A DNA stretch of 64,000 nt, taken from an uncultured Nitrososphaerales archaeon. Lineage in GTDB: Archaea > Thermoproteota > Nitrososphaeria > Nitrososphaerales > Nitrososphaeraceae. The notes below the pieces were generated by a model. It did not search any database. It was given only the letters and a program-made list of their open reading frames with translations, and was not told where the DNA came from. Both the position numbers and the translations under genes were made by a program. Positions 973 through 63,380 of the stretch are shown here, one piece after another (position 1 is the stretch's first letter; each line of letters starts with the position of its first letter). The stretch spans positions 96,001 through 160,000 of the forward strand of contig CAVOHZ010000008.1 in the NCBI GenBank assembly GCA_963695855.1, read 5' to 3'.

Positions 973-1036
973 TTTCACATCCATAAAACTTGGGATGGGA
1001 CCAACATTTAGGTCAAATTTGTTTCACATCCCACTG
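973..1036 (+). repeat. att-like site 1 (A-type left arm, core truncated after CCACTG)
   Basis: tgggaccaacatttaggtcaaatttgtttcacatcccactg. Confidence 0.85.
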
Positions 1037-1197
1037 AAAAAGATACAAAAATGTAGCTAATCTGCCGAATACTTTGTGATTCATAATTAACTATTTAATT
1101 TAATAATAATGTTTTAATAATATACTTATTTTTTTGAATGTAAAAACGGCAATGGATTTTTTATAATCTTTAAATTGTATAATCAATATTTCAGATT

Positions 1198-2297
1198 GTG
1201 AGAGCAGCCATTTTCGAGAAACAAGGATTTGAGAATCTCAAAATCAAAGGTGATGTGGAAAACCCTAAAGTTTTAGACTGTGATGTTTTAATTAAAGTTA
1301 TAGTAGCAGCAGTAAATCCTATTGATTATTATGTGATTTCTGGTTATAAAACAATACAACAACAAAAGGAAACAGACCAACTACGAAAACAAAAAGCTCC
1401 TCAAACAACAGAACTACCAGTAAATCCTCTTCCCCATATCCCAGGAGAGGAGTTTGTGGGAGTAGTTGAAAAGGTAGGATCTCATGTTAGAACAATAAAG
1501 AAAGGCGATAGAGTTGCTATCTATACCAGAGTTTTTGATAATACTTGTGATATGTGTATTAGTGGTAATGAAATGCTGTGTAGAAACGGTGGCATAATGA
1601 GTGTTCTTAATAATGGAGGTTTTTCTGATTATATTTCAGTTCCTGAAAGAAATGTATTTAAAATTCCTGATAATATTGATTGGTATTCAGCTGTAAGCTT
1701 GTCAGTATCAGGATTAACTGCATTTGATGCCTTGAATGAGTCACAATTAAAGATTAATGATTCATTACTCATTTTTGGTGCATCGGGAAATACAGGTATG
1801 ATGGCAGTACAATTAGGTAAGAGAATGGGATCTAGAGTTATTGCAGTTTCAACAAAAAAGTGGATTAAAGATGAATATGGTGCAGATTATCTAATTACAG
1901 ATTATGATAATGTAATAGATAAAGTTAAAGAGATAACTAATGGAATAATGACAGATGTTGTAATAAATTCTCTTGGCAGCGATACCTGGAAAGATAGTTT
2001 TTCTTCAATTGGAGTTAATGGCAGATGTATTTCTTTTGGTACATTGACTGGAAGTAATGTAGAATTAAACATACAGGAATTATATTCAAAGCAGTAAAAT
2101 TAATTGGATCTAATAGAGGAAATATAGAAGAATTTAGAGAATTGATAGAATTTATATCATATTCTAGTACAATTAATGATCCCTTAAAAATTAAAGTTTG
2201 GAAAAGATTTAACCTTGAAAATATAGAACAAGCCTTTGAGGCTCTTAATGAGAGGAAAAGAGAAGGAAGAGTGCTATTGGATATAAATAAAGAATAA
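1198..2297 (+). pseudogene. Zn-binding alcohol dehydrogenase, frameshifted near 2095
   Basis: C-x2-C-x7-C Zn loop and GASGNTG. After the TAA at 2097 another frame continues KLIGSNRG...REGRVLLDINKE* to 2297. Confidence 0.85.
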
Positions 2298-2623
2298 TTA
2301 AGTTGGAAAAAAATACTTGATAATAAAAGTACAATAGATTATAAAATATAACAGTTATTGTTATTTTATATTCGATATAAAATAGAAATTTCTATAGACA
2401 TCTAATCTTAAATAGGAAGTAACATTTTGAATATTATTGGTTTTAGAGATGGTACATTAAGATATAATTAGCAATGATATATTCAAAAAGCTAATTATTA
2501 GAGTAATAAAATTATAATAAGTAGAACATTTATTTCCTTTTTTATTGTTTAACTTATATTATTGATACCACTTAAATTGATTAAATTTCAATAACTATTA
2601 AAAATATTTTAACTCCTTCTCGA

Positions 2624-2700
2624 GGGACCAAAAAATAGGTCAAATTTGTTTCACATCCCACTGGCCCCATAGTGATATTAGTTCTCTAATTGGATTCACT
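2624..2700 (+). repeat. att-like site 2 (A arm + core + R1 arm, the integrase leader)
   Basis: gggaccaaaaaataggtcaaatttgtttcacatcccactggccccat-agtgatattagttctctaattggattcact. Confidence 0.9.
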
Positions 2701-2731
2701 CGAAACAAAAATAAGGTGAACCAAGAAAAAA

Positions 2732-2995
2732 ATGAAATTTGAACAAAGTTTTGAAGAATCTAGTGCTTATTCATTATTTCTGTTTGCAGTTAGAACACAG
2801 GTAACAAGAAACTATTACCTGAGAAGGTTAAGAATTTTTTTCAATTTTATTAACTTAGAACCAGATAAACCAATGGAAGAACGATGTAATTATCTTGCTA
2901 AAAAAGGAACAAAAGATCCTAATTGGGTTCTGAGCTGTATAATAAAATTCTTGCAATTTCAAAAAGAAAGGGTAGAAAAGGTGTCATCTCTCTAG
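2732..2995 (+). pseudogene. Tyrosine integrase family 1, N-terminal fragment
   Basis: Closely similar to the N-terminus of 11512 (YYLRRLRIFFN, FLQFQK.RVEK), then truncated. Confidence 0.85.
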
Positions 2996-4050
2996 AGGCA
3001 TTCATAATATCCATACGCATTATCATAATTACAATACTGAATGAATTACTCGAGGGACATGATTTCTCTTTTACGAAGTGCCTGAATTAGATTCCTACTA
3101 TTATAGGTAATTTTTGGCCAACTTTTATTAATCGAAAAAATAAAATATTATTTACCTCAATATATTAAGGTAAGTGACGAGTACTTAAAAATATATAAAA
3201 GTTATAGTAAACCGACATATATGCCTAATAGTAACCTTTTAGCAATCAATAATAAATATATTAATACCATTATTTTAGAAGTATGTTGTATAACACATAT
3301 TAATGATAATGTCATATTATTATTATGAGAATAACTCATCGTCCTAAGATAAAAAAGGATCAGAGCAAAGAAAGGCAAAAGCTAAATAGTACATCTGAAT
3401 CCTATAATAGGGCTAAGGCAATAATTGCTTCTGTCTATGGGTTAGATATTATAGAAGACGAACCTATAAGATCTAGATAGGACAACAAATTTTAACATTA
3501 GGATTTCTATGATTAATGGCATTTATTTCAATGGTATATGCGTTGTTAGTTTCAAAATAACCGACAAGTATGTGATTCAAGGGACAAAATGTCTTCTTCG
3601 GGGGTATCAGCATCAAGATATTAACAGGAACGATAATCTACAAAATTCGTCGCAGATAATGAGATGCATTTTTGAAATTCACTAAAAATTAGACAGATAT
3701 ATAAAATTTCGTTTTAATTTTTTTATGGTAAACTCTATCTCGATTGACCTATTGGCTATGACGTCTTATTTTTAATTAAATTATTGTTATTGTGAAGATC
3801 GGCAAAATCATAATATTATTACCGTATCTAGGATATATAATTCTTATAAGAAAAAAATCTCTTAAAATAAACTATAATAATAGTATTGAAAATATTATAA
3901 CTGATCGAGTACTGACCGGTTGATGGTCATTATTGGAGGAGTGAAAATCTAATTATAACCTATAAGTTAATAGCTTTCGGAAATAGAAATTGCTTATAGC
4001 TTACAATCTATAATATTTTGAGTCCATTTTTAGTACCAATATCAAAACGG

Positions 4051-4085
4051 AAACCACTGGCCCCATATAGTATAAGGGGACAGTT
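4051..4085 (+). repeat. att-like site 3 (core + R2 arm)
   Basis: aaaccactggccccatatagtataaggggacagtt. Confidence 0.85.
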
Positions 4086-5872: not shown

Positions 5873-6040
5873 TGGTCTCACTTTATGGAGGGCTTCAAAT
5901 CCCACTGATTTGACTACGAAGGCATATGGACCCATTTTTATAATGAAATATGGAATATATAATGCTAATTAAAAATACATTTTTTAGGTCAAATTTGTTT
6001 CACAAACCACTGGCCCCATTGAACTCTGGGTTCCAATCCT
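5873..6040 (+). repeat. Double att-like site 4 (B arm+core, ~80-bp linker, A arm+core, R3 arm)
   Basis: tggtctcactttatggagggcttcaaatcccactg ... taggtcaaatttgtttcacaaaccactggccccattgaactc; linker shared with 30686-30827. Confidence 0.9.
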
Positions 6041-6115
6041 ATCTTTATCAGAATTCATAAAGCAATAATTATATAAACTAGGAATTAATCTTTACTTTTT
6101 TTATCATTTATTTTG

Positions 6116-6313
6116 CTTTGTTGCCTAACTCGTTCTTCCTAACACATTTAGCTAACCTATTTTAGTCATATTATGTTACCTGGAAGAAATACAATGAATC
6201 TCTAGTGAGAAGAGGAGAAATATTATTTGATTTTGATGTTATTGATAACTGGAATACTGAACTAGATGTGATGAACAAGGACAAGAAAGGTAGAAAATTC
6301 GTATATCCAGATT
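6116..6313 (+). mobile_element. IS5-family left-end fragment
   Basis: Matches the left end and first codons of the IS at 57606 (W..YNESLV.RGE.L.DFD.IDNWNTEL). Confidence 0.85.
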
Positions 6314-10768: not shown

Positions 10769-11135
10769 AAGTTATGATATGAGTGAGTTTGATGTTTCCT
10801 TCAATTTGATACTTTGTCATTGGTTTCAAGAAAAACAAAAAGTTATTAGTTCTAGCTAAGATTGATATTAATACCTACCTCAATTGACATTTAGGTTTAT
10901 AATACTTGACTCAGATGTTTGTTCATATGTTTATCTCTGTGTTAAGTTACCAAGGATTCTACAAGTTATGGAAGAGAAAGGAAAGAATTGACAAAATTAT
11001 TTATATTGCTAAAATAATAAAATTAGAAATGAATAGAATCTCTGATTGCATCAAAGGTTCTAGTTTCATTGTTCTATTATCTTTCCTTGTTCTAATATTT
11101 TACCTTGGTAAATGATGGAAAAAGAAATCTTCACA

Positions 11136-11448
11136 ACTCGTTTTAAGTCTTCTAAATAATCACTTCTACAGATAGGATCTCCTGGATCTCGTATATGCAT
11201 TTCACAGTACTCCAAAGTCTGGAGTTATGGTACATAGTAAAGATAATCTGTATGTGCCTGATACATATAATCAACGTACACAACAATTTAAGTTATCACA
11301 ACATTGGCAATTCAAAATCTGAAAATGATATTGAATGAGTTAGAATAATAGCTAAAATGATATTTATAAAAACAAATTAATTTAATAAAATTTTATTGTG
11401 GGTCCAAAATAAAGGACATATTTGTTTCACATCCCACTGGCCCCATTG
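11136..11448 (+). repeat. ~310-bp direct repeat of 63042-63354, ending at att-like site 5
   Basis: Near-identical sequence from actcgttttaagtc to ccactggccccattg; contains an NHL-repeat fragment. Confidence 0.9.
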
Positions 11449-11511: not shown

Positions 11512-12746
11512 ATGAAAATAACAGAACAAAGTTTAGAAGAATCTAATGCATATTCCTTATTTGTATATGCAATTAGATCACAAGTTACAAGAGATTACTA
11601 TCTTAGAAGATTGAGAATTTTCTTTAATTATATTAATTTAGAACTTGATAAAACAATTGAAGAAAGATGTAACTGTTTTGCAGATAAGGGAACCAATGAT
11701 CCTACTTGGGCATTTAATTCCATCTTAAGATTTTTACAATTCCAAAAAGATCGAGTAGAAAAAGAAGAGATAACAGGAGCGACATTAAGAAATTTCATAA
11801 AAGCAATCAAATTATTTTGCGAAATGTCTGATATTCCCATTCCTTGGAAGAAAATTACAAGAGGACTGCCAAAAATCAGAAGATATGCAGATGATAGAGT
11901 ACCAACGATAGAAGAGATACAACAACTTTGTGAATATCCTGACCGACGAATCAAAGGAATTGTGTATACAATGGCATCTTCAGGAATAAGATTAGGAGCA
12001 TGGGATTATCTACTCTGGAAAGATATTCAACCAATAAACGTCAGGGCAAGATAGTAGCAGCAAAAATTATTGTTTATGCTGGAGACGATAAAGAATATTT
12101 TTCATTTATTACTCCAGAAGCATACTATGAACTCCAAAAATGGATGCAGTATAGGCAAGACAGTGGTGAGGAAATTCATGAAAATAGTTGGGTAATGAGA
12201 CAGTTATGGGATACAAAAAAAGGTTATTATCATCATGGAACTATAAAAAATCCAGAAAAACTCAAATCTTCAGGCCTTAAGCGATTGATGGAAGATGATC
12301 TATGGACGCAAGGTATTAGAAAAAAATCTAACTTAAAAAGAAATAGATATGAATTTGAATCAGACCATGGATTTAGAAAATGGTTTAAAACTAGATGCGA
12401 AATCTCTGGAATGAAAAGCATTAACATAGAGATTTTGATGGGTCATTCAATAGGAATTTCTGATTCCTATTATAAAATAACACAAGATGAACTATTAATG
12501 GAATATTTGAAAGCATCAGATTATTTGATGATAAGCAATGAAAATCAAATACAAAAACAATATAACAAGATACAAATACAAAATCAAAATGACTTTAAAT
12601 TTATAGAAGGCAAATTATTTGAAAAAGAGAACGAAATAGAAGTATTAAATCGTAATGACCAAAATAAATCTGATGCTATTGCAGCATTAGCAGATAAAAT
12701 TGATGAATTGGTATTAGAAATTGAACGATTAAAAAGAAGTCGATAA
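11512..12746 (+). pseudogene. Tyrosine integrase family 1, full length with one frameshift near 12040
   Basis: SSGIRLGAW (R), HGFRK (HxxR), LMGH and DSYY (Y) split over two overlapping ORFs; C-terminal coiled coil. Confidence 0.9.
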
Positions 12747-17405: not shown

Positions 17406-17515
17406 ACTGATCTCACTTTATAGAAGGGTTCAATCCATAGAATTATCATGGGACCAAAATTCATGTCAAATTTGTTTCACATCCCACCGGCTCCATATAG
17501 TATAAGGGGACAGTT
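17406..17515 (+). repeat. Double att-like site 6 (B arm, short linker, A arm+core, R2 arm)
   Basis: actgatctcactttatagaagggttcaatccatagaattatcatgggacc...tttcacatcccaccggctccatatagtataaggggacagtt. Confidence 0.9.
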
Positions 17516-17562
17516 AAAATATAAGAATATTATGTAAGAGAATAAAACAAGATACGTATTAC

Positions 17563-17676
17563 GGCCCTGTTAACTTAAGGATAAAGTAATGTGTATATTC
17601 TACTTTTATATTATGTTCTATGCTCAATTTCAAAAGAATTTTTCAATTTATTTCATAAATTTTCCTTAACTTAACA
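17563..17676. mobile_element. IS6-like MITE (copy 1, right end eroded)
   Basis: ggccctgttaacttaagg ... ccttaacttaaca; homologous to 38257-38377. Confidence 0.7.
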
Positions 17677-18009
17677 TCTATGAAAATCTCTATCTGTATC
17701 AGGTCATCCTTATGTTCCTGTTAAGCGTAATATTCTATTATAATTCATCATATTAAAAATTATCTAAAATAGCATATGCTATACTTGTTACTTTCCCTTG
17801 ATTTTGCTTTTTTTCATTCTTTTTTTATTTTATTTTCTTTTTTTTATGTCGGCTAACAGGCGGCAAACATCTATTCACCTTCTTTATGAGGTAGTAGTAT
17901 AGCCGCTCGGATATTGGTTCAGTCAGAGCCTCACTCTCGTACGGAGTATGTTAACTTTGAACCTAGCCTGAATACAGAAGGGATTGGTACCCAATAAAGA
18001 TTTTCATAT

Positions 18010-18285
18010 AGTCAGAGCCATTTTTAGCATAGGAGAATAGTCTATCTTTGTAAACAGACCTTCTATTCCATTATTATCATTGAATTTATGAATCCACTTC
18101 CTAATTGTTTTGTCGTAAGTGTTGGTCATCTCTCTTATCTCTGGTACTGTGTACCCGTCATTAGCAAGTATAATTTTTATTCTATATTTTATTTCTGGAT
18201 TTGTATCCCATGCAAAAGAGTATACAGTTTGTTTATCTCTTTATCTGTAATTTCTCTGATGGGAGTTATCTTACCACACCACTGA
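18010..18285 (-). pseudogene. IS630-like transposase HTH fragment
   Basis: Manual translation RIKIILANDGYTVPEIREMTNTYDKTIRKWIHKFND..GIEGLF, with stops. Confidence 0.6.
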
Positions 18286-18408
18286 GTAAAATACACTCAG
18301 CTAAAGTACTACCTATCAGAAATAATTTGTCAAAAAGGTAAATGGTAGTTTACTATAATTGTCAATCTATGCATTTACATAACTCTTAACTTAACGTAGC
18401 CATTAAGA

Positions 18409-20120: not shown

Positions 20121-20231
20121 ACTGGTCCCACTTTATAGAAGGGTTCAAATCCATAGAACTATCATGGGGCCGAAATTCATGTCAAATTTGTTTCAAATCC
20201 CACTGGCCCCATATAGTATAAGGGGACTGTT
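20121..20231 (+). repeat. Double att-like site 7 (B arm, short linker, A arm+core, R2 arm)
   Basis: actggtcccactttatagaagggttcaaatccatagaactatcatggggccgaaattcatgtcaaatttgtttcaaatcccactggccccatatagtataaggggactgtt. Confidence 0.92.
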
Positions 20232-22559: not shown

Positions 22560-23257
22560 CTTAAATGGATTAAAATTTAAAAAATAACAAATCACTTAGT
22601 AATGTAAATTTTTGGGAAAAATTAAGTTCAAAAACCGTTTAAATGTATTATTTTATAAAACTTTTTAAATTTCGTCTATTTTCTTTTGTAAGAATTTTAG
22701 GGTTACATAAAATGTTTATGAATTATGCATTAGGCCTCTAACATAATATAAGAAGTTATAACATTCGCAATTTTACTACAAATACGGAGTTTTGTTGTGT
22801 GGTCATTTTGCCTAGTCGTAAATTTATTTATTATTATGATAGATATAATATTAATGGATTTAGAAAAAATAAAGATATCTTGTCTAATGTATAGTAGTTG
22901 ATTGATTCAAAGATACTTTATAGCACTATAATTATCCTCTGTGGTTCACCTGATGCTGTTGGACTTGCATAAGCTATATTACATTCAAAAGATTGACTAA
23001 CCGTATCAACTCCTAATTGAATGAGACAACCATAAACTACAGAACCTGTTTTCACCAGATTATCCATGGCTATGGGAACATCTACCATTTTGAGGAGAAA
23101 ATGAATCTTCTTGACCTGGTTGAATAACAGCCTTAGATCAACTTTTTTCATTTGAATTTCTTTGTCGGTACTTATCAGATCAACTCTTATTTTTAACAGA
23201 AAGAATACAAGAAATAGAAAGAAAACAATCAAAATAATATGTAAATTTATCTATTAA

Positions 23258-23301
23258 AAGGGTTCTCTGGGATTTGAACCCTTCTATAAAGTGGGAACAG
23301 T
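23258..23301 (-). repeat. att-like site 8 (B arm+core, inverted)
   Basis: Reverse complement reads actgttcccactttatagaagggttcaaatcccagagaaccctt. Confidence 0.88.
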
Positions 23302-23479: not shown

Positions 23480-23935
23480 TTACGGTTCTTGTTCTTCTCT
23501 CCAGCCCCATATCCCCTTCTTTTTCCATCTTATATAAGCAAAAATCCAAGTCTTGATCATTAACCCTACATCATATGAGCTATAGTCACTTGACCAATCT
23601 TCATCAGGTTTTAGATAACAGATAGTATTGTCTATGAACATATGGGGAGTTTGTGTTGGATCAAGATCAGGTTCTATTATACGTACTTTAGGAGGAAACA
23701 AAGGATAGTCTTGAACATATTCTATTAGAAAAATAAAGCATGTTTTTTCAAAGCTTCCTTCAATTTGAAGTTGTGTTACAGGTAATTCAATTACTAACCC
23801 AATATTCCCATTGTCCATAATGTGAAACTTCCATCTGGTATTCAATTCAAATGCTCCGGCTATCTCGTTTGCTTCGTATTGTATACTTCTATCACCATTT
23901 CCTACTACATTAATTGAGTTGTTCAAGTTAATCAC
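23480..23935 (-). CDS. E2 (UBC-fold) ubiquitin-conjugating-like protein
   Basis: 'DYPLFPPKVRI...PHMFIDNTICYL...W' matches the UBC YPxxPP / H-x6-C pattern. Confidence 0.85.
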   Translation of the reverse strand: MINLNNSINVVGNGDRSIQYEANEIAGAFELNTRWKFHIMDNGNIGLVIELPVTQLQIEGSFEKTCFIFLIEYVQDYPLFPPKVRIIEPDLDPTQTPHMFIDNTICYLKPDEDWSSDYSSYDVGLMIKTWIFAYIRWKKKGIWGWREEQEP

Positions 23936-25184
23936 TTGTTGGAATGCCTTTGGAACATATTTGGCAGTCGGGTATCCGTTCTAATATACGGTCTTCCTGA
24001 TATAAGACAAATGTTTCTACTTTATGATCAGGTAGGTTCTTATTAAACCAATAATAAATATCGGACTTGAATGATCCATCCATGTCTTTTTCTTCTAATA
24101 AAGTACTCAAAATAAATTTTACCGTTGGCAGGGTTATAAGATCAATATCTATTCCTAGCCCTGGTTGTGTCAACATGTCCTTTATATCTCTTCCATAATT
24201 TTTAATATAATTTTTATCTATAATTTGTGGCTTTTGAAATATTGTGTCATCACCATATTTTTTATATATACATCTATAACATATGGATTTTTTACGTGGG
24301 TCTATCCTTATCATTATTCCTCCAGTGATTTTTTCAAATGCACCTGCAAATATAATTGGTATATTTCTTCTGTAACCAAATTCATTAATCGATTCATTCA
24401 TGATATTGTCTCCTGTAGCAGAAACTATAAGGTCAGCCTTAGACAATAAATGATCAAAAAAATCTTCTATATTTCTATTTTCTCTAGAAAAAGGTTTTTC
24501 GATTGTAGTAATGTTAATTATAGGAACTCTGTCTAGAATATAATCTTTAACGGCTAATGTTTTGTATCGTCCAACATCCTTCAAAGAACAAATATGCCTA
24601 ACTATATTATGATCCATTATAACATCACCATCTATTAAAGTTAAATTTCCTACTCCACTCTTAGCTAGATGCAATGCTATTAATGAACCACCAGAACCTA
24701 GCCCTATTATTGCAACGTTTTTTTTATTAATTATTGATAACGGATATTCAGGAGTAGCAATCCTGAGATATAAATTTGAATAATCCTGTATAATAACAAG
24801 TATTTCGTATAAATTATTAGTCTCACTATCTTTGATAAAAATTTTTAAAGAACTTTCCTCTATTAATTCTTTCAAAGATATTTTAAATTGAGGAAGATCT
24901 GATATATTAAAAGTTAAATGAGAGTTGGCTAATATAATATTACCTAGATTGGGTAACTGATACGGTCGTGTGTTGTTGACGATTTGATCAATTCTTTGTA
25001 TTTGATATGTTGATTCATCAATGATAAAACCATTAACGGAAAATAGAAACTTTTCATTATTTTGGAATTTTTTGTCTAATAATATTTCTTTAACAGGAGG
25101 AAATATAACTAGAAATATAGTTTTTGTGTTTGTATTTGTTTTATCCTTATTATATAATATTAATTTATGATCTCTCATTGACAT
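23928..25184 (-). CDS. ThiF/MoeB/E1-like adenylyltransferase
   Basis: IIGLGSGGS..A..LAKSGVG.LTLIDGD...NIVRH; CYRC and C-terminal CQIC Zn motifs. Confidence 0.92.
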   Translation of the reverse strand: MSMRDHKLILYNKDKTNTNTKTIFLVIFPPVKEILLDKKFQNNEKFLFSVNGFIIDESTYQIQRIDQIVNNTRPYQLPNLGNIILANSHLTFNISDLPQFKISLKELIEESSLKIFIKDSETNNLYEILVIIQDYSNLYLRIATPEYPLSIINKKNVAIIGLGSGGSLIALHLAKSGVGNLTLIDGDVIMDHNIVRHICSLKDVGRYKTLAVKDYILDRVPIINITTIEKPFSRENRNIEDFFDHLLSKADLIVSATGDNIMNESINEFGYRRNIPIIFAGAFEKITGGIMIRIDPRKKSICYRCIYKKYGDDTIFQKPQIIDKNYIKNYGRDIKDMLTQPGLGIDIDLITLPTVKFILSTLLEEKDMDGSFKSDIYYWFNKNLPDHKVETFVLYQEDRILERIPDCQICSKGIPTSD

Positions 25185-26178
25185 TTTTAGCTTTCTCCTT
25201 TAAATAAATATTGGATAAAGAAAAAGCTTTTAAACCTGTAAATACATTTTTTAACCTCCTTTTCAAGACACTAATTCTTGTCTTATCACTTAGATGAGAA
25301 GTCTTATCACTTAGATGAGAAGTCTTATCAATATAATATTGTGATCTATCCACCATATTTTTTATTTTAGGCAATAATTCTACTCTATTAAAAAAAATAT
25401 CTGAAAATAGAATTTCTTCAACTATTTTAGTAAATTTACGATCTAATGTAACGCCGATACTAATTCTATCATTCATAGATATATTGAGATGTGGAAATTT
25501 AATAAATACAGAATAGACAATTTTATCCTTTGAAGTATACCAATTATCATTTGAACTGTAAATTTCTTCATAAAATAATTTATAATTCCGAGACTTATTA
25601 GATTGTGAATGGAGAAATGTTTTGCCAGTATAGTCTTTCAAATTTTTCGATAGATTGTCAACGAAATTTCGAACGTTTATTGTTTTACCATTAAAAAATT
25701 TATTTGACTGTTGTATATTAGTTATCCTCTTTATTTGAAGATCTTTTTTAACAAATTCATTTTTATCAAAATAATAATTAGTGGCTATGAGATTATAATC
25801 ATAATCATAAAAATCTATTATTAATGATAAATAGTTTCGTTTATGGCTATTCTGTAAGAGAAACAACTCAGCTTGTTTATCATCACCATTACTGGGACCG
25901 CCATATCCTAAATGCTTATGCCAATTTCCTAGATAAGTCAGATTATTTCTTTCCATTTGTTTGGTTATATTTATTGCAAAATCTTCATCCATTTCAAAAT
26001 AGACAGGTGTTCTTTTTGCATTAGCTGATGGTAACTGAATTATTTTTAAGATTATTAGATATTCTCCTATGATCCTACCAAAAAGTAATCCACCTGTTTC
26101 AACGTTTTTGTGACTATTACTTTCTTCGATGATATCATCAATTGTATTCTCTGTTATGATTAACTTGTTATGACTCAT
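25165..26178 (-). CDS. JAB/MPN+ metallopeptidase domain protein
   Basis: ETGGLLFG and GNWHKH...PSNGD (JAMM motif). Confidence 0.88.
   Translation of the reverse strand: MSHNKLIITENTIDDIIEESNSHKNVETGGLLFGRIIGEYLIILKIIQLPSANAKRTPVYFEMDEDFAINITKQMERNNLTYLGNWHKHLGYGGPSNGDDKQAELFLLQNSHKRNYLSLIIDFYDYDYNLIATNYYFDKNEFVKKDLQIKRITNIQQSNKFFNGKTINVRNFVDNLSKNLKDYTGKTFLHSQSNKSRNYKLFYEEIYSSNDNWYTSKDKIVYSVFIKFPHLNISMNDRISIGVTLDRKFTKIVEEILFSDIFFNRVELLPKIKNMVDRSQYYIDKTSHLSDKTSHLSDKTRISVLKRRLKNVFTGLKAFSLSNIYLKEKAKNVNERS
25280..25330. repeat. 21-bp tandem repeat (about 2.4 copies) in the JAB gene
   Basis: gtcttatcacttagatgagaa x2 + gtcttatca; encodes DKTSHLS repeats. Confidence 0.9.
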
Positions 26179-27276: not shown

Positions 27277-27395
27277 CTGTAGTAATAATAATAAATTCTC
27301 TATCTTCGGATTTCAAATTTGATTGGAGTGGATCATAATTTTAGTAAGTAATTAAGGTTAAGTATTTTAAAGTAATTAAGGTAAAATATTTTATA

Positions 27396-28466: not shown

Positions 28467-28531
28467 TGGGGCAAAAATTTAGGTCAGATTTGTTTCACAT
28501 CCCACTGACCCCATTTATAAATGGATTCATA
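28467..28531 (+). repeat. att-like site 9 (A arm+core, R4 arm)
   Basis: tggggcaaaaatttaggtcagatttgtttcacatcccactgaccccatttataaatggattcata. Confidence 0.88.
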
Positions 28532-28584
28532 TACTTTTTGTGTATCATACCATTTGTAGAAAAAAAGGAGGAATAAACCGGTGA

Positions 28585-45853: not shown

Positions 45854-47341
45854 ATGAATGAAAATATAGACTTCTCCAATTCCAACAAAGAAACTGAATT
45901 AAAATGTTCCTTGTATAAAGAACCACTGCTTACTGAAAAAAATGAGGAAATCATTCAAGTAATAGATGGTTCTCTATACTTTTTTCATACTCATAAATGT
46001 TTTAACGTGTACAAGGGATTGGATAACTTTTATGGTAAAAATATTAAAAATTTTATTGGAAATAAACAATTTGTTTTTGATTCTTTCTGGGATAAAGCCA
46101 TTCCTACTTCAGATGAAATTCAAGAAATAAAAAAAAATAATAATAAATCCAGTAAACCAAGTCTCAAAGTAATCAAGAACCCTAAAGAAGTAATAAGAAC
46201 TGCTATTAATCTTGTTCAATCTGCAGAGGATGAAGTATTACTACTTTTTTCTTCAGCAAACGGATTTTATAGGAGAATGGTATTGGGAGATGGTTTCCTT
46301 GCTTTGCAAAGATTACAAGACACTACCAAAGGTAATATAAAATTAAGAATTCTAACACCTTTTGATAAAAAGATTGTTGATGCAGTTAATAGATTAAAGA
46401 CTCAAGGAGTACATATTAGGTATTTACCAGAAGCACTCTATTTAACAGTCACATTTTTGATAGTAGACAGAAAATTCTCTATGACTGCTGAACTAGTAAA
46501 CGATTATACAGAAATTCCTGCTGAATCGCTAGGGCTCTCAACCTTCTCTAATAGTAAATCAACGGTATTATATTATATTTCTATGTTTGAGAACTTGTGG
46601 AAACAGTCAGACCTTTATAAAAAGGCGGAAAATCTTTATGAGCAATTAAAAAAAACAAATGAAACACAAATACAATTTATTAAAGAAACAGCACACGAGA
46701 TTCGAAATCCAATCCAGTCTATTTTAGGCCTCGCAGAAGTTATGCTTTCTAAGCAGAACCTTGATGTTGGTCATATAGAGGATTTAGTCAAAATAATTAT
46801 AAAGAATGCTAAAAAAATTAAATTTCTTACAGATAATATATTGGAGGCTGCACGTATTGACAGTCACCTTTTAACTCTTAATATGGAAGAATTTGATCTT
46901 GTGGAGTTAGTAGAAGATTTACTAAAAGATTTGAAAAACCAAATTCGAAATAAAAAGATTAGTTTAATTTTAAAATGCAAAGAAGATTCAATTTTGCTAG
47001 TTGCAGATAAATTGCGTTTAAATCAAGTTTTTTTAAACATTATCAATAATGCTATAAATGTGTCACAAAAAGGACAAATTATTGTATTTTTAGAAAGACA
47101 AAACAACAACACTGTATTGGTAAGAATAATAGATAAAGGCCCAGGCATTCCATCAAATATAAAGGATAAACTCTTTACTAAATTTGTAACAGGCTCAAAA
47201 TCAGGAACTGGCCTAGGTCTCTACATTTGTAAAAATATTATCGAAAAACATGGTGGAAAGATATGGGGGGAGAACAATAAGAACAAAGGTGCAAATTTTA
47301 ATCTTACGATACCTATGACAGCTCAGTTAAGTAAACAATAA
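45854..47341 (+). CDS. Cytoplasmic sensor histidine kinase (copy 2)
   Basis: AHEIRNP, N/G boxes; close paralog of 35453..36949. Confidence 0.92.
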   Translation: MNENIDFSNSNKETELKCSLYKEPLLTEKNEEIIQVIDGSLYFFHTHKCFNVYKGLDNFYGKNIKNFIGNKQFVFDSFWDKAIPTSDEIQEIKKNNNKSSKPSLKVIKNPKEVIRTAINLVQSAEDEVLLLFSSANGFYRRMVLGDGFLALQRLQDTTKGNIKLRILTPFDKKIVDAVNRLKTQGVHIRYLPEALYLTVTFLIVDRKFSMTAELVNDYTEIPAESLGLSTFSNSKSTVLYYISMFENLWKQSDLYKKAENLYEQLKKTNETQIQFIKETAHEIRNPIQSILGLAEVMLSKQNLDVGHIEDLVKIIIKNAKKIKFLTDNILEAARIDSHLLTLNMEEFDLVELVEDLLKDLKNQIRNKKISLILKCKEDSILLVADKLRLNQVFLNIINNAINVSQKGQIIVFLERQNNNTVLVRIIDKGPGIPSNIKDKLFTKFVTGSKSGTGLGLYICKNIIEKHGGKIWGENNKNKGANFNLTIPMTAQLSKQ

Positions 47342-50344: not shown

Positions 50345-51592
50345 ATGGTAACGAAATCTTCTAGTTTTCTCGTACTTTTTTTAACTACTTTAGGAATGAT
50401 TACTTCTATTATTCCAACAATAGACGCACAAAAAGTTATTCCTAACGACGTAAATCCAATGCAACTACCACAACAACTACCACAACAGCAACAGCAAGGA
50501 CAGCAATCCCAATTCCAATACAATACCCAAGACTTTCAAACATTCACTAAATACATGGATATGTACAATGAGTTATATCCTCCTCAACCACAACAACCAA
50601 CACCACAACAACAAGGCTCGAATTATTACGACTTTCTGACATTCATGCAATATTTACAATATTACGACAACCTGTATGGCCAGAAAGATTATATCATAAA
50701 GCATTATCATGATGACGATGATAATGATGATAATGATTACAAATACAAGTACAAATACAAATACAAGAACGAATATGAAAACTGGAAGAAGCACGATGGA
50801 CACGGAGATGGAAAAAAGAGTAATTACCCAAGTAAGCAATTTCATCCAATAACTAAAACTAAAGCTACAAATACAATCGAACAGGAATGTAAGCAAAATA
50901 CCGGTAAAATGAACAATGGAAAATGTGATATCAAAAATCCAGATGACCAGATAGAATTTGAACATGAACTAGCAGATGAAGGACTGTGGCCTGAATATAC
51001 TGTAGCACAACAAGCACAAAATTTTCTTAGTGAAGCAAATGTAGAGAAAAGTATTGGATTTCCTGGAGAATATGAACCGGGCTACAAAAAAACAGATGCA
51101 CAAAAAAGAGCTGAAGAAGCAGAATTTGTAGCAGAGCTGGAAGATGATTTACAAGATGCAAATACACCAGAACAAAAAGAAAAGATACAGAGTCAAATAA
51201 AGCAAGCTAAAGAAAAGTTTGGTCTAAATGATGATGAAACTGAAAAACAACCTGAACCAACAGAAGTTAATAATGTTAGCCCTCAAGTTGACCTTGTCCA
51301 ACAACAACAAGTACAAGAACAACAACCACAAATACACTATTCACAAGGTTCATACGAAGAGGAACTAAGTTCAGATGATACTGAAGGAAGTTCATATGAA
51401 GAGGAGGAAAGTGATGATAATAGTGAACCAAGTTCATATGAAGAGGAAGAGAGTTCAGATGAGGAAAGTGATGATAGTGGCGATGATGATAGTAGTGAGG
51501 AAAGTGATGATAGTAGTGACGATAGTGACGATGGAGGCGGAGACGACGGTGGAGACGACGGAGGCGGAGACGACGGCGGAGGAGAAGAATAA
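50345..51592 (+). CDS. Exported low-complexity protein (Q-rich, YK repeats, acidic D/E/S/G tail)
   Basis: Signal peptide and compositional blocks. Confidence 0.75.
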   Translation: MVTKSSSFLVLFLTTLGMITSIIPTIDAQKVIPNDVNPMQLPQQLPQQQQQGQQSQFQYNTQDFQTFTKYMDMYNELYPPQPQQPTPQQQGSNYYDFLTFMQYLQYYDNLYGQKDYIIKHYHDDDDNDDNDYKYKYKYKYKNEYENWKKHDGHGDGKKSNYPSKQFHPITKTKATNTIEQECKQNTGKMNNGKCDIKNPDDQIEFEHELADEGLWPEYTVAQQAQNFLSEANVEKSIGFPGEYEPGYKKTDAQKRAEEAEFVAELEDDLQDANTPEQKEKIQSQIKQAKEKFGLNDDETEKQPEPTEVNNVSPQVDLVQQQQVQEQQPQIHYSQGSYEEELSSDDTEGSSYEEEESDDNSEPSSYEEEESSDEESDDSGDDDSSEESDDSSDDSDDGGGDDGGDDGGGDDGGGEE

Positions 51593-52746: not shown

Positions 52747-53042
52747 TACGTAAAAGGAAATTTCTTGTAAATTATTTTTAATAGTGTGGATGCTATAGAA
52801 TCTGGTCTTTTTATATATGAAGCAGGTTATAGATAAAATCGTTTTAATGACTCAAATCTTTTAGTATATTTAATTTCTCTATATAATGACTAGGCTCAAA
52901 GTCATTATGTTGTTGAGACTTACGAAATTATGTGTAAAATGATTATAAAAATACAAAAAAAATTTTTCTGAAATAAAGAATTGTAATTATGAAATAAATT
53001 TCAATTTTGTAAATGATTTTACAACAATATTAATATATCCTA

Positions 53043-53118
53043 GGGCCAAAATTTAGGTCAAATTTGTTTTACAAACCACTGCCCCCCGTTGTGACAATAG
53101 TTCTAAAATTGGATTCAT
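53043..53118 (+). repeat. att-like site 13 (degenerate A arm+core, R1 arm, no integrase following)
   Basis: gggccaaaatttaggtcaaatttgttttacaaaccactgccccccgttgtgacaatagttctaaaattggattca. Confidence 0.82.
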
Positions 53119-55160: not shown

Positions 55161-55365
55161 TCAATATGAAAAAGGAAAAAGTGTAAAGATTGCAAACTTC
55201 AAGATTTTATGAGCAATATAATAGATTCATATCTGCTTGGTGCTATTAACTAAATGGTATTACATTTCAAATAACAATATTAAATATGTTACCAAATCAA
55301 TTAATAAATATTGGATACGGGACCACCTAATCACAAACGGGTTCAGTAATATTATTTAGCTAAAT

Positions 55366-55403
55366 GTGTGGGATTTGAACCATTCTATAAAGTGGGACCA
55401 GTT
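55366..55403 (-). repeat. att-like site 14 (B arm+core, inverted)
   Basis: Reverse complement reads aactggtcccactttatagaatggttcaaatcccacac. Confidence 0.88.
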
Positions 55404-57143: not shown

Positions 57144-58891
57144 GGCTGTGTTAATTTACGTTAATATCCACCTCCTTTAACCAAAAATAATTCTTATTAT
57201 TTGCTTTAGTATCATTATACATCGAAACAAAGAATTGTATCCAGTTATGTACATGAAATAGATTACATTCCTCTTTTTGCATACAAGGAGAGTAGTCATC
57301 AAAATTTTCTCTTCTGTCTTTCAAATACTGGTTGACTCTTTCCATCAAACTTTTCTGAAATGGTGAGTGTAGGTAGTGTTTTAATCCAATTACGTTACTT
57401 GCTTCATCATACCATGTACCACCATCTGTATACGCGGCATGTTTTCCATATTTTGATACAAGAGATCAGATCAAATAAATTTTTCAGCAATTATCATGTT
57501 TCTCTCCTCTGAGAGATAGATTCCAAGTATAGATTTATGAACAGGTTCAATACAAAACCATAACCAGAAGTGCTGGTTACCAATCTGAATAATAGTTTCA
57601 TCTATTGCCTTGTTGCACAACTTGTTCTTCTCAACACATTTAGCTAACCAATTCTAGTCATATTATGTGAACTGGAGAAATTACAACGAATCTCTTGTTA
57701 AACGTGGTGAGGTATTACTGGATTTTGATATTATAGATAACTGGAATACTGAACTAGAGAAGATGAATAAGGAAAAGGAAGGTAGGAAATTCGTATATCC
57801 AGATTCATTTGTCAAGTTATTGGGATACATGAGAGCATACTTTCACTTACCCTACAGACAAACTGAAGGAGTAGTAAGAGAACATGCTTCAAACACTTTG
57901 CCATCAATTCCAGATTATAGTAACATTAGCAGAAGAATAAATAGACTGGATATCAAGATTTCTGATGATATAACCAAATCTAACTTGCATGATGATAATT
58001 TTGTTATTGCAATTGATTCTACCGGTATAAAGGTATCTAAGAGGGGTGAATGGATTAGACACAAGTGGAATGTAAAAAGAGGATATCTAAAGATACATTT
58101 AGCAGTCGATATAAAAAAGAAGAGAATTCTATCATTAGATGTTACTAGTGAAGAAGTACATGATGTAAAAGTACTTCCAAAATTGGTTGATTATATAGCA
58201 ATAAAACAGAATAAGGTAATAGATACTGCTATCATGGATGGTTCCTATGATAGCAACAAGATCTTTCAGTTTCTATCATTTAAAGGCATACAACCAGCAA
58301 TAAAGGTAAGAAAGAATTCTAGATGCAGAAACAAGACCAATCATTACCTTAGAAACAAGATGGTGAAAATGCAGAAGAATGATTTGCAAGAATGGAAAGA
58401 TAGTGTACGCTATGGACAAAGATGGATGGTAGAATCTGTTTTTTCCTCTATGAAGAGAATGTTTGGTGAATATGTTACTGCTATCAGGTTAGAGAACATG
58501 ATAAGAGAGATAATGTTGAAAGCATCGTTGTATAACTGGTTTCAAAGTATAACTGTTACATAATTATCAATTATATAATAATGAGAACGATTGGTTAAAC
58601 GAGTTATGCAACAAACCATCCATCTATAATAAAAGCAGTTACTCTTTTTCTGTTATAGATTTGGCAGGATCCAAATCTCTGAATCCAATTCCAAACAGAA
58701 ACATAACTTCTCTTCTGATCTCTAAATATAGTTAGTGCCTTGGATGTTTTTCTTAAACTTAAACCAAGAAAGTATAGATAAAGATAATACATTACAATAA
58801 AAGAAGATGTTTTATTTCTATCAAATTTGATTTTCATAGTATATTTAGAACATTCTCAGCTATAGCTTTTACTGCTTATCTGAACAGAGCC
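57144..58891 (-). mobile_element. IS6 element interrupted by an IS5 insertion
   Basis: TIRs ggctgtgttaat / gaacagagcc; transposase halves at 58604..58837 and 57151..57600 split at IID/ET. Confidence 0.88.
57606..58618 (+). mobile_element. IS5 family (IS903-like) element, transposase 57667..58563
   Basis: AIDSTG, KIHLAVD, DGSYD, RWMVESVFSSMK; TIRs gccttgttgcacaact / agttatgcaacaaacc; 9-bp TSD ttcatctat/tccatctat. Confidence 0.92.
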
Positions 58892-59693: not shown

Positions 59694-59738
59694 AACTGGT
59701 CCCACTTTATAAAAGGGTTCAAATCCCACTGGCCCCAT
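59694..59738 (+). repeat. att-like site 15 (B arm joined directly to the full tRNA-like core)
   Basis: aactggtcccactttataaaagggttcaaatcccactggccccat. Confidence 0.92.
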
Positions 59739-59767
59739 TACAAACCTGTGTCTTCATTTAGACCCAT

Positions 59768-61065
59768 TTGCTATATATCATGCAAATAATGTCAATCCCT
59801 AATACATTCACAGAAATTATTTTAGAGGAAGGACACAAACAACTGACTCCCTATCTGATGTTCAAATATGCAATTAAAACAGAGATAACAAGAAAGTATT
59901 ATGAAAGAAGATTGAAAAAATTCTTTGACTTTATTGAATTTGAAATGATAGATAAAGACATTGAATACAGATCTAATAAATTTGTAGAAAAAGCAAAAGA
60001 TAATTCAAATTGGACATTAAGTCAGATAATTAGATTTTTACAATTTCAAAAAGAGAGAGTAGAAAAGAAAGAGATCACTGCTGGGACTCTAAAGAATTTT
60101 GTTAAGTCAATAAAGGTATTCTGTGAAATGTCTGATCTCTCAATTCCCTGGAAGAAAATTACAAGAGGGTTACCAAATGCAAGACAATCAGCAAACGATA
60201 GAGCTCCTACTATAGATGAGATACATAGACTGTTAGGATATCCCGATAGAAGAATAAAACCCATTGTCTACACAATGATATCATCTGGGATAAGGTTAGG
60301 AGCTTGGGATTATCTAAAATGGAAACATATTATTCCAATTAAGAATAAAGAAGGGGAGATAGTAGCAGCCAAGATAATTGTTTATGCTGGTGAAGTTGAT
60401 TAATATTATTGATTCATTACTGAAGAAGCTTATAACTCACTACTAGACTGGATAAAATCCAGAGAAGAATATGGTGAAAAGATTACTGGAGAATCTTGGT
60501 TGATGAGAGACATCTGGCAAACAACTAATGTAAACTACGGGGCTAAATGGGGATTAGCAACATATCCTAAAAAATTGAATAGTTATGCTATTAAGAGAAT
60601 ATTAGAGAGGGATTATGGTCAGAAGGCTTACGAAAAACACTTGAAAAAGGAGAAAAGAGACACGAATACAAAGCAGCTCATGGATTTAGAAAATTCTACA
60701 AAACTAGAACAGAACAAGTTATGCGTCCACTGAATGTAGAGATAACACTTGGTCACAATGTCGGACTTTCTGGGTCATATTACAAACCAACTGAGAAATT
60801 AATTTTAGAAGATTATCTTAAAGTAATAGATTTACTTACTTTAAATAATAATCAAAAAGTTCTAGAGAAAGAAATTAATAAGTTAAAAGAAAAGAGTCAA
60901 GATGATGAATATATTATAAAAGTCAAATTATGTGAGAAAGATGTACAAATTAAGGAACTTAAGAAAAGCGATAAAGTTAAAGAAGATGCATTAGCTCATG
61001 TATCGGATCAGTTGATGATATTAACTGAAAGAATTCAAGAGTTGGAGAGAAAACAATCAAAATAG
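59768..61065 (+). pseudogene. Tyrosine integrase family 1, disrupted by stops and a frameshift
   Basis: SSGIRLGAW; stops at about 60401 and 60410; HGFRKFYKT out of frame; LGHNVGLSGSYY. Confidence 0.9.
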
Positions 61066-61078
61066 ATCAGGATTAAAA

Positions 61079-61123
61079 GTGGGTTGTGTGGGATTTGAAC
61101 CCTTCTATAAAGTGAGACCAGTT
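61079..61123 (-). repeat. att-like site 16 (B arm+core, inverted)
   Basis: Reverse complement reads aactggtctcactttatagaagggttcaaatcccacacaacccac. Confidence 0.9.
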
Positions 61124-61475: not shown

Positions 61476-62252
61476 TTATTTTCGCATAGAAGAGAGGAAA
61501 TCGTTTTTTTCTTTAATAATCGGAAGATCCAATATTTCTTTAATAATCTCAATATGTTTATCAGGATTTTTATAAATCGAATTTAGTTTTTTATACAACA
61601 TGTTTGGATCAATTTTTATCCCACTCTTTCGTGATGCTCTCTTAAATGACCGATCAGAAATAACAATCCAATCATAATGGGTTGGAAGACTTGTTTTCGC
61701 TAAATTAGCGAATGATATTAACTTTGGTTTTTCCCTTAAATATTCCTGAATTTCAGCCTCCTTGACACCATAGTGAGAATAAAGTGATTCGTTTATCCGA
61801 GAAATTTTCTTATTAGTTGCATCAAGTTCTTCCCTTGCTTTTTTAATATAAGTAGGGATATCTTCTATGTTTAACTGATATTTCTTTTCAAATTGTAATA
61901 TTTTATTAATTTCAGTAAGAAACTTATCGTGCTCTATTACTAATCTAAAACTTTCTTTATCGGTAGATTCTAGAAAATTCTCAAAGAATGGACAAGTTAA
62001 ACTCAATTTATTTATTTTATTATATAGTCGAACTCCGGAAATTACATCAGAAAATCCTAAATTGTAACTCTTAAATTTTTTTGCAATCTCTCGTATGTAT
62101 GAAAAAATTTCATCATTTCTTGATGCCTCTGATGTTATTGTCGATATTGTTCCCACACTAACACCCAGCATCTTGCTAATTTCCGGGATTGAATATCCTT
62201 CCAAATATTTTCTAATACTATCAGATTTTATTACAGGAGGAATGGCCCGCAT
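61476..62252 (-). CDS. N-terminal HTH + coiled-coil protein (mobile-element associated)
   Basis: YLEGYSIPEISKMLGVSVGTISTI helix-turn-helix. Confidence 0.75.
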   Translation of the reverse strand: MRAIPPVIKSDSIRKYLEGYSIPEISKMLGVSVGTISTITSEASRNDEIFSYIREIAKKFKSYNLGFSDVISGVRLYNKINKLSLTCPFFENFLESTDKESFRLVIEHDKFLTEINKILQFEKKYQLNIEDIPTYIKKAREELDATNKKISRINESLYSHYGVKEAEIQEYLREKPKLISFANLAKTSLPTHYDWIVISDRSFKRASRKSGIKIDPNMLYKKLNSIYKNPDKHIEIIKEILDLPIIKEKNDFLSSMRK

Positions 62253-62562
62253 TTAAAAGAGCTTAAAAAATTGGCTTAAAAGGTTTGCTCTATTTAGCTA
62301 ATTTTCTCATATTAGAGACTTCCCTTGTAGAATGCGATATAGATTCATTATCATTTATACCGTTACAAAAAATTTGACAAATATATGAAAAATCTATAAC
62401 AATTTAAACTTCTATTACTTCAAATTAATTGATTTGTCGGATAGTATTCTGAGTTAGATAATCGATTATGGTTAATTGTGAAGTTTCAATTATCTTCATT
62501 GAATATAAGTAAAATTCAATTACTCTATCTAGTATCACTCTAATATGAGCACAAAACGGGCC

Positions 62563-62683
62563 ATTTGAAAGCTATTTGAAAGGTATTTGAAAACAATTAG
62601 AAAACAATTTGAAAACAATTTGAAAACAATCTGAAAACAATCTGAATACCATTAAATAATGATTTGAAAGGTATTTGAAAGAA
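62563..62683. repeat. 11-bp tandem repeat ATTTGAAA(ACA/GGT), 8+2 copies
   Basis: atttgaaagct atttgaaaggt atttgaaaaca attagaaaaca atttgaaaaca atttgaaaaca atctgaaaaca atctgaatacc ... atttgaaaggt atttgaaagaa. Confidence 0.9.
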
Positions 62684-62905
62684 TTTAACGGGTTTAAAAT
62701 TGAGTAGAATGAGCTCCCAGTATTATAAATAATGATAATCCATTCCGTTTTATCATTCTTAAATCAAATCAATCGATAAAATCTAATCATAAGTAATCAT
62801 CAAAAAAAAGATTCAGTTCTATCTTTTAAAATACTGCATTACCATTTAAATTAGACTCTTCTATTATTCTGTAGAAAGATAAAAGAATAACCTAATAGTT
62901 GTAAC

Positions 62906-63121
62906 TCATTCATCTTTTGAATCAAAAATTTTTTTTATTTCTTCATTTTGTTGTTTTACAATATGATCATCATCTTCCTCCTCAAATAAAAAAGGAAACG
63001 ATCTCCTCTCCTCTTGGGTTATAAATTTCTTAAATCTTCTTACTCGTTTTAAGTCTTCTAAATAATCACTTCTACAGATAGGATCTCCTGGATCTCGTAT
63101 ATGCATTTCACAGTACTCCAA
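62906..63121 (-). CDS. Small hypothetical protein or gene fragment
   Basis: 71-aa ORF, partly duplicated at 11136. Confidence 0.4.
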   Translation of the reverse strand: MEYCEMHIRDPGDPICRSDYLEDLKRVRRFKKFITQEERRSFPFLFEEEDDDHIVKQQNEEIKKIFDSKDE

Positions 63122-63304
63122 AATCTGGAGTTATGGTAGATAGTAAAGATAATCTGTATTTGCCTGATACATATAATCAACGTACACAACAATTTAAGTT
63201 ATCACAACATTGGCAATTCAAAATCTGAAAATGATATTGAATGAGTCAGAATAATAGCTAAAATGATATTTATAAAAACAAATTAATTTAATAAAATTTT
63301 ATTG

Positions 63305-63380
63305 TGGGTCCAAAATAAAGGACATATTCGTTTCACATCCCACTGGCCCCATTGAACTCTCAGTTCCAATTCTATATTTA
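63305..63380 (+). repeat. att-like site 17 (A arm+core, R3 arm)
   Basis: tgggtccaaaataaaggacatattcgtttcacatcccactggccccattgaactctcagttccaat. Confidence 0.9.

Follow-up and report, generated by a model that had tools for sequence, protein, structure and literature searches.

How did one stretch of an archaeal genome come to be divided, every few kilobases, by a short sequence resembling the 3' end of a tRNA gene? The stretch, called the window throughout, comprises 64,000 nucleotides from an uncultured Nitrososphaerales archaeon (G000:C8:96001-160000, contig CAVOHZ010000008.1 of assembly GCA_963695855.1; genome of 3.55 Mb in 11 contigs, 31% G+C), and positions without a contig prefix are counted from its first letter. 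An initial annotation had read the repeats as recombination sites of an integrase-driven gene-capture platform, functionally like an integron or tycheposon island. We find that the window lies in the middle of a genomic island, at least 82 kb long, whose anchor is the 3' end of an intron-bearing tRNA-Pro(GGG) gene in a soil ammonia-oxidising archaeon. In our reading, to which we assign a probability of about 0.78, the island was built by tandem accretion of integrative elements that target tRNA-Pro, followed by decay and by recombination between the sites. This reading rests on the tRNA at the edge of the island, on sites that are clustered, in direct orientation and linked to integrases, on breakpoints that fall at the core, and on a complete att-flanked element in a relative. 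The process is a known one, of which the island is an unusually dense archaeal case.

The site array and the tRNA-Pro gene at its edge

A scan for TTCAMATCCCAC, allowing up to one mismatch, gave 16 matches in the window, compared with a mean of 0.44 in 100 dinucleotide shuffles (maximum 2; none of the 100 reached 16). A fuzzy scan using the left arms of the sites and the 20-nt core added a partial core (ACCACTGGCCCCA) at 4052, degenerate copies at 5999 and 53067, and arms resembling class B (defined below) at 17409 and 20124. The resulting total of 19 site loci agrees with the 17 loci and approximately 21 repeats reported initially, for which the coordinates given were mostly those of the arm starts, 25-30 nt to the left of the T-loop-like 12-mer. 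Every site is intergenic, as had been claimed, with no overlap with any of the 85 open reading frames (ORFs) of at least 70 aa in the window. Successive sites are separated by 97-6050 bp, with the single exception of an 18557-bp interval, and the median spacing is 2272 bp.

No tRNA was found inside the window by ARAGORN or Rfam. At its gathering threshold Rfam gave no match in the window or in 40 kb of flanks, and it also missed the true tRNA-Pro gene, presumably because of the intron. On the plus strand, 4.4 kb upstream of the window, ARAGORN recognised a tRNA fold (C8:91508-91603) that ends in GTGGGTTCAAATCCCACTGGCCCCA and has the acceptor stem GGGGCTA/TGGCCCC and the T arm GTGGG-TTCAAAT-CCCAC; the anticodon arm was misread. 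When candidate introns were deleted in 294 variants of this sequence the commonest call was tRNA-Pro(GGG), returned for 57 variants, and inspection by eye indicated that removal of a 20-nt insert after tRNA position 29 yields the anticodon loop CTGGGGC. The same gene is present in nine named Nitrososphaeraceae assemblies, where the exons are conserved and the insert, located at the same place, is variable in sequence and length. A tRNA-Pro origin of the core, proposed from the repeats themselves, is thus matched by a tRNA-Pro(GGG) gene at the left edge of the island; a second copy of the tail, at C6:177533, is a partial tRNA only.

We mapped the 20-mer TTCAMATCCCACTGGCCCCA, with up to one mismatch, across G000 and 80 other genomes of the family Nitrososphaeraceae. 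G000 contains 23 copies, 12 of which lie within C8:91.5-173.2 kb, a region that makes up 2.3% of the genome (binomial probability 2.4e-14), so that the motif is clustered and not scattered evenly. All 12 island copies are on the plus strand, like the tRNA, and a control with the reversed pattern gave no matches. The other 80 genomes contain 0-7 copies each, usually the tRNA alone, many of these assemblies being so fragmented that repeats may be hidden in them; the set includes two unpublished genomes (G107 and G069), on neither of which any conclusion rests. Class-B arms are more dispersed, with 27 in G000, of which 11 are in the island and 16 outside it.

Two classes of arm are found to the left of the T-loop-like 12-mer: class A is composed of TGGGRCCAAAATTTAGGTCAAATTTGT followed by TTCACATCCCAC, and class B of (A)ACTGGTCCCACTTTATAGAAGGG followed by TTCAAATCCCAC. 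The acceptor part, TGGCCCCA(T), intact or decayed, is present in 12 plus-strand sites, which run into right flanks of five recurrent types, with three copies of type 1, four of type 2, two each of types 3 and 4, and one of type 5. The resemblance to tRNA 3' ends that was initially extended to all sites holds for these acceptor-bearing copies, but not for the four minus-strand sites, which consist of a class-B arm and the 12-mer only. The latter, together with the plus-strand sites at 5874 and 30690, constitute a form termed B2, which lacks the acceptor part and continues into (A)GAACCC and a T run, in some cases after a 22-nt insert. No conserved family was found among the ORFs downstream of the inverted B2 sites. 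Class A holds an inverted pair, TGGGRCCA ... TGGCCCCA. When the sites were folded as DNA only two of eight gave z < -2, the copy at 20162-20214 folding well (z -2.19), and the predicted structures differ among copies; the sites are conserved in sequence and not in fold.

The acceptor-bearing sites, all on the plus strand, range from perfect to decayed. A class-A arm with the full 20-nt tRNA-Pro 3' core is found at 2624-2669 and 11400-11445 (both followed by the type-1 flank) and at 63306-63351 (type 4); the site at 34268-34313 has a class-A arm and a perfect core (type 2), and that at 28468-28513 a class-A arm and the TGACCCCA variant of the core (type 3). The arm is degenerate at 5973-6018 (core TTCACAAACCACTGGCCCCA, type 4), at 30781-30826 (full core, type 3) and at 53042-53087 (decayed core TTTTACAAACCACTGCCCCCC, type-1-like flank). 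Two sites are composites in which a linker joins a B arm to an A arm, namely 17409-17495 (B-like arm, then class-A arm with core CCCACCGGCTCCA) and 20124-20211 (class-B arm, then class-A arm with a perfect core); both precede type-2 flanks, and the same composite occurs in another species (L032). At 59698-59737 a class-B arm is joined to a perfect core and to the type-5 flank, which is the flank behind the true tRNA-Pro, and the partial core at 4052-4065 runs into a type-2 flank. A further plus-strand copy at 997-1037 has a class-A arm and the 12-mer, its core being truncated and the acceptor part replaced after CCCACTGA. The B2 site at 5874-5938 carries the class-B arm, the 12-mer, the 22-nt insert and GGACCCATTTTT, and the insert recurs in the same arrangement at 30690-30755. 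On the minus strand, B2 sites occupy 23250-23298 (arm and 12-mer at 23270-23298, continuing into AGAACCC and a T run), 34482-34530 (34502-34530, located 216 bp from the site at 34294), 55340-55399 (55371-55399, with insert and GAACCC) and 61072-61119 (61091-61119, directly 3' of a broken integrase).

Other tRNA genes of this genome have features of the same kind. An intron-bearing tRNA-Leu(CAA) at C8:73810-73918 (minus strand) has a 20-nt 3' end that is repeated exactly 22.9 kb downstream (C8:50910-73830, outside the window), a repetition that probably marks a further element integrated at a second tRNA. A second type of tRNA-like tail, GGGTT.GA.TCCCACTCCCGGCGC, is present in the island as two direct copies 2.4 kb apart, at C8:164788 and C8:167179 (L002 4788 and 7179); ARAGORN calls no tRNA at either, and they may represent an intron-bearing tRNA with an insert of its own. 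In the whole of G000, which is 99.9% complete, ARAGORN yields only 36 tRNAs, several with odd anticodon calls, and tRNA calling in this genome is unreliable because of non-canonical introns.

Integrase remnants, related elements and breakpoints

Comparison by tblastn with the integrases of the genome itself and with the window ORFs revealed five integrase remnants in the window, which begin 29-78 nt past the end of a core, as the initial annotation had noticed. All are on the plus strand. The sequence at 2732-2995 is an N-terminal remnant of 87 aa that belongs to the tRNA-Pro integrase family and is 71% identical to the copy at 11512-12746, a near full-length pseudogene with one frameshift near 12000-12054, whose two parts share 83% and 91% identity with the intact integrase P0001 of a relative in the same genus. 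N-terminal remnants at 28564-28877 and 30906-31337 belong to a second integrase family, the former being up to 70% identical, over a short stretch, to integrases located beside a tRNA-Arg (C10:1147461) and at C8:2757. The fifth, at 59768-61065, is a pseudogene in three frames with stops, whose N-terminus is 60% identical to the 11512 copy. No match to PF00589 was found within C8:96001-160000, and 13 are found elsewhere in the genome; the window remnants are 27-33% identical to those G000 integrases that pass the PF00589 cut-off. The intact P0001 matches the archaeal XerA profile NF040815 at E 3.6e-10 over residues 41-299 (259 residues) and PF00589 at E 0.0014, both below the family cut-offs, and a sequence search of the PDB with the integrase gave no match. 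The integrase belongs to a divergent family of tyrosine recombinases.

Matches to P0001 at E <= 1e-40 are present in 15 of 25 genomes of the genus that were searched, many of them as open frames of 400-440 aa. In G000 itself there are six matches to the tRNA-Pro integrase family, all partial or interrupted by stops, and the trace that follows the tRNA-Pro gene (C8:91647-91763) extends to only 39 residues. The island contains no intact integrase, and the proposal of a working, integrase-driven capture platform finds no support here. In all five remnants, and in nine loci of relatives, the att (attachment) core lies beside the integrase but outside its ORF. The "suicidal" integrases of the Sulfolobus spindle-shaped virus (SSV) type in Sulfolobales have att inside the integrase gene, which is split on integration, and the elements become trapped at tRNA genes; the position of the core, 29-78 nt upstream of the integrase start, shows that the present enzymes are not of this split type.

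The same geometry is seen at the tRNA-Pro gene of relatives. Nine loci from named Nitrososphaeraceae contain the full tRNA-Pro followed by a type-1 or type-5-like leader and an integrase, and in G003:C297 and G010:C146 as well the tRNA-Pro contig runs straight into the same leader and integrase. The locus L062 contains a 9-kb element bounded by the tRNA (attL, 9833) and by a class-A-type arm with TTCACAAACCACTGGCCCCA (attR, 18882), within which CoA-transferase, CBS, multicopper-oxidase and response-regulator genes accompany a fragmented integrase. Since its attR combines a class-A-type arm with the core, class A can be identified as the element-borne arm of attP. In L034 a Prim-Pol gene (E 1.7e-6) is located behind the integrase, an arrangement typical of plasmid-like cryptic integrated elements; no replication module (primase or helicase) was found among the window genes. 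Several loci with intact integrases in G010, G012, G016 and G003 are on short contigs or have other tRNAs nearby, so both element ends are not visible there.

A different arrangement was encountered in L082 (G035:C78), where a class-B and a class-A site at 1966-3772 face each other with two convergent integrase genes between them. Acceptor-bearing sites can therefore stand inverted, which suggests that inversions occur inside such arrays.

Synteny with relatives breaks at the core, as the initial annotation had predicted. The 96% identity with G014 holds as far as query base 1605, where the tRNA ends, and the sequences are unrelated past it; the match to G017 likewise stops at 1605. Blocks of the window are scattered over different contigs in G014, and several of the matches stop within a site (5902, 11448 and 5986 are examples). 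Within G000, repeat alignments have 361 unique ends, and 21 of these lie in site windows, which make up 1.3% of the region. One module end is present three times, at 94-98% identity and with three different right neighbours, at 11125-11447, 62376-63353 and C8:383892-382785; the 300 nt to the left of site 11400 are 98% identical to 63042-63341, and approximately 1 kb to the left of site 63306 is 94% identical to C8:383743-382785. The third copy is a free-standing unit of 1.09 kb with no integrase and with a class-B site and a class-A site at its ends. A candidate empty site for this mini-element was considered in G035:C27, where the flanks are approximately 0.5 kb apart, compared with 5.2 kb in G000. 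The sequence that makes up the difference is composite; neither of its ends is at a site and one of them is a multi-copy repeat, and the comparison is no proof that the mini-element moves alone.

An exact 30-mer junction was found in 74 soil contigs of a metagenome collection; the 78 class-A sites that these contain are followed by leaders of at least five types (20, 20, 14, 8 and 2 sites; 14 others), and the union of several leader types with class A fits junctions between different elements. Likeness to the integrase ends at scattered points in these contigs, 45-1111 nt past the core, and this scatter points to erosion, not to designed cassettes. Joint data were taken from Logan contigs, in which joints at site edges can derive from other strains or loci; those with sides shorter than 30 letters (17433>30742 and 22474>34294) are unreliable, and parts of the window that have no cover in the soil runs are not evidence of absence.

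Accretion and decay weighed against other explanations

The proposed history begins with plasmid-like integrative elements that would carry a tyrosine integrase just inside their left end, and whose attP would recombine with the last 12-20 nt of the tRNA. Each integration would restore the tRNA and leave a second copy of its tail at the far end of the element, preceded by the 25-30-nt arm of the element itself, class A or class B. Repeated integration at the same target would stack elements head to tail, and an internal junction would therefore consist of the arm of the left element, the tRNA 3' core, and the leader and integrase of the right element. Later, the integrases would have become frameshifted or eroded from the 3' side, insertion sequences would have landed in the array, and recombination between sites would have deleted, duplicated and reshuffled segments to give 1-6 kb blocks of unrelated cargo. 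Decay is invoked because all cognate integrases in G000 are broken, the truncation points are scattered, insertion sequences are present and the blocks are mosaic. The order of these events, a crossover inside ATCCCACTGGCCCCA and an array that is now frozen in G000 are what we infer from the remains. The crossover is placed there because TTCACAT is retained in class-A sites, the tRNA having TTCAAAT.

A number of observations fit this history poorly. Sites of both classes also occur away from any tRNA-Pro (C8:383 kb, C3 and C10), and in G014 a module without an integrase touches the true tRNA. The inverted B2 sites (n = 4), the B-A composites and the 22-nt inserts are left unexplained. The right boundary of the island was not found in C8:160-180 kb, which is still mosaic in comparison with G014 and G035, or from the flanks of L062, which show no synteny with C8, and for these two reasons the right edge is undefined. 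Sites on the same contig in relatives are 7-27 kb apart, compared with a median of 2.3 kb in the window, and thaumarchaeal cryptic integrated elements have a median length of 17 kb in the portion of PMC6563490 considered here, which also exceeds the window intervals; heavy deletion must therefore be assumed. An integrase homolog follows the site in only 13 of the 61 soil contigs with room for one, and no integrase was ever seen behind a right flank of type 2 or type 4. For these integrase-less flanks and for the G014 module, simple decay is a less neat explanation than transfer in trans. No excised circle or empty site was seen, so that recombination is deduced and not observed.

The most probable of the alternatives is a living cassette system, which we consider unlikely. 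The arm and core would then constitute functional minimal att sites, and blocks of 1-6 kb lacking an integrase would be excised, exchanged and re-inserted at tRNA-Pro by integrases acting in trans, encoded elsewhere in the cell or on incoming elements, in an archaeal analogue of cis-mobilisable elements, tycheposon cargo shuttles or integron cassettes. Most window intervals are indeed att-flanked segments without an integrase, perfect cores persist 60-80 kb from the tRNA, and the 1.09-kb unit at C8:383892-382785 stands alone and has its 94-98% identical copies at two places in the window. The G014 module that adjoins the true tRNA without an integrase would be expected, as would the 48 of 61 soil contigs that have no integrase homolog behind an exact class-A site, and the 13 PF00589 matches elsewhere in the genome could supply recombinases. 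Four soil contigs contain two sites, three of the pairs being only 1.9-2.9 kb apart, and joints at arm starts that connect 33823 with 17406 and 31174 with 20121 (sides of 56 and 32 letters) are present in contigs of other soil studies, although these joints may come from other strains. Against this, all six cognate integrase matches in G000 are broken, and the scatter of the soil truncations over 45-1111 nt fits erosion better than a defined cassette boundary. The blocks between sites are mosaics that lie on different contigs in a 96%-identical relative, and a 4.7-kb block shared with G035:C11 is not bordered by recognisable sites in G035. None of the 74 soil contigs is circular, and the viral contigs searched contained no exact class-A or class-B junction. 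If the cassette explanation were true, the island would be a working cassette exchange in soil ammonia-oxidising archaea, and the TATA-like TTTATAGA of the class-B arm might serve as an outward promoter active only across a junction.

We regard as very improbable that the sites are tRNA-derived miniature repeats, similar to short interspersed nuclear elements (SINEs) or miniature inverted-repeat transposable elements (MITEs), or products of segmental duplication or misassembly, with no relation to integrases. The class-B copies at 27 places, 16 of them outside the island, some arranged as inverted pairs 180-220 bp apart, would suit such an origin in a genus that is rich in multi-copy repeats. 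It would leave unexplained a geometry with integrases and the true tRNA that is fixed across nine species, the location of all 12 acceptor-bearing island copies on the strand of the tRNA, and block contents that are mostly unrelated to one another. Also against it are independent soil assemblies that contain the same exact 30-mer junctions, and run X1, in which 83 of 204 contigs are at least 99% alike to the window. Least probable of all is an integron-like platform, in which one resident integrase and a promoter would capture promoterless cassettes through folded attC-like sites: short repeated sites do separate small gene blocks here, as in integrons, and the class-A inverted pair and the well-folding copy at 20162-20214 recall attC, but the analogy fails because the sites share no fold (only two of eight fold better than shuffles at z < -2) and are not structure-defined, genes point in both directions, and no resident intI, attI or Pc heads the array, only the 39-residue trace at C8:91647-91763, several integrase families and at least five leader types being interleaved instead.

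Cargo of the island and comparison with known systems

Accretion and decay would have left a varied cargo, which is found on both strands between the sites and includes copper proteins, a tyrosinase with its chaperone, oxidoreductases of the sulfide:quinone and NDH-2 types, a GH1 glycosidase, signalling genes and a ubiquitin-like E2/E1/JAB module. The latter is a three-gene operon at 23480-26178 (minus strand) encoding an E2-like protein (151 aa), a ThiF/E1 protein (418 aa) and a JAB deubiquitinase-like protein (337 aa), all of which match PADLOC models (E2, E1-E2 and JAB; ubiquitin-like conjugation of the Bil type or accessory to CBASS, the cyclic-oligonucleotide-based antiphage signalling system). 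No cyclase gene adjoins this operon, which is bounded by the inverted B2 site at 23270-23298. Copper-enzyme genes are distributed over separate att-delimited blocks, with DUF1326 and a PpoB2 copper chaperone at 26824-28211 and the tyrosinase two blocks further on at 31483-32346. The site-free interval of 18.6 kb contains two histidine-kinase paralogues (35453-36949 and 45854-47341) that reach 94% identity over 300 nt, a patatin-like phospholipase, DsbA, two UPF0060 genes and a response regulator. An ORF of 415 aa at 50345-51592, which has no Pfam match, contains a 21/42-nt periodic repeat (51348-51473) that encodes acidic units rich in Ser, Glu and Asp. Insertion sequences within the array include an intact DDE_Tnp_1 transposase at 57667-58563. 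Multi-copy repeats of 200-700 bp, which are insertion-sequence ends or MITE-like (6114-6313, 17560-18390, 57605-58563; L014 12675-13390), have tens of copies in G000 and are present in every relative of the genus that was searched.

Nitrososphaeraceae are major soil nitrifiers in which the gain and loss of accessory genes are poorly known. In the accretion reading, a family of integrative elements widespread among Nitrososphaeraceae uses one tRNA-Pro gene as its landing pad. The island supplies a defined att sequence, and relatives supply candidate intact integrases, among them open frames of 390-440 aa such as that at G010:C198, for recombination assays; these could perhaps be developed as genetic tools for a group that has none.

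Cis-mobilisable elements of streptococci move with integrative and conjugative elements (ICEs) by accretion-mobilisation, a conjugation-linked process for which movement has been demonstrated experimentally. As in that system, att-flanked segments without an integrase stand here in tandem with integrase-bearing elements, and mobilisation is in this case only a possibility.

Among archaea, elements in tRNA genes provide precedents for the individual steps. The portions of Krupovic et al. 2019 (PMC6563490) and of the review by Badel et al. 2021 (PMC8371274) considered here report that one site can be used again in tandem and that integrases are lost after integration; they also describe an integrase adjoining att, tRNA targets that include intron-bearing genes, and short direct repeats, all of which are shared with the present island. 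In these accounts pairs of elements are described, whereas here approximately 20 sites are associated with one tRNA, and the same portions do not mention class-A and class-B arms, B-A composites or inverted B2 sites. We found no description of this array in the literature searched, the att-site supplement of PMC6563490, which possibly lists tRNA-Pro targets or arrays, lying outside the search. Tandem islands of Dehalococcoides, as far as described in the part of PMC3146451 considered, are anchored at ssrA and integrate at the 3' end of this single small-RNA gene; in contrast to the tRNA-Pro of an archaeon, their target is a transfer-messenger RNA (tmRNA) in a bacterial host.

The closest published picture is the tycheposon island of Prochlorococcus, to which the initial annotation had compared the window, and the comparison is apt as an analogy. 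According to the part of the account considered here (Hackl et al., bioRxiv 10.1101/2020.12.28.424599), such islands lie by tRNA genes, where successive integrations push older elements inward, and contain scattered partial tRNAs, fragmented integrases and niche-related cargo, autonomous tycheposons being composed of an integrase, a small replication module and cargo. The present island is likewise located beside a tRNA and holds partial tRNA repeats and integrase fragments, and in the relative L034 a Prim-Pol gene follows the integrase. It differs from what is described there in its archaeal host, in an integrase whose nearest profile is that of archaeal XerA, and in that no replication module was found in the window. 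By this analogy the island would be an archaeal counterpart of a tycheposon island, and would extend this style of island building from marine cyanobacteria to archaea.

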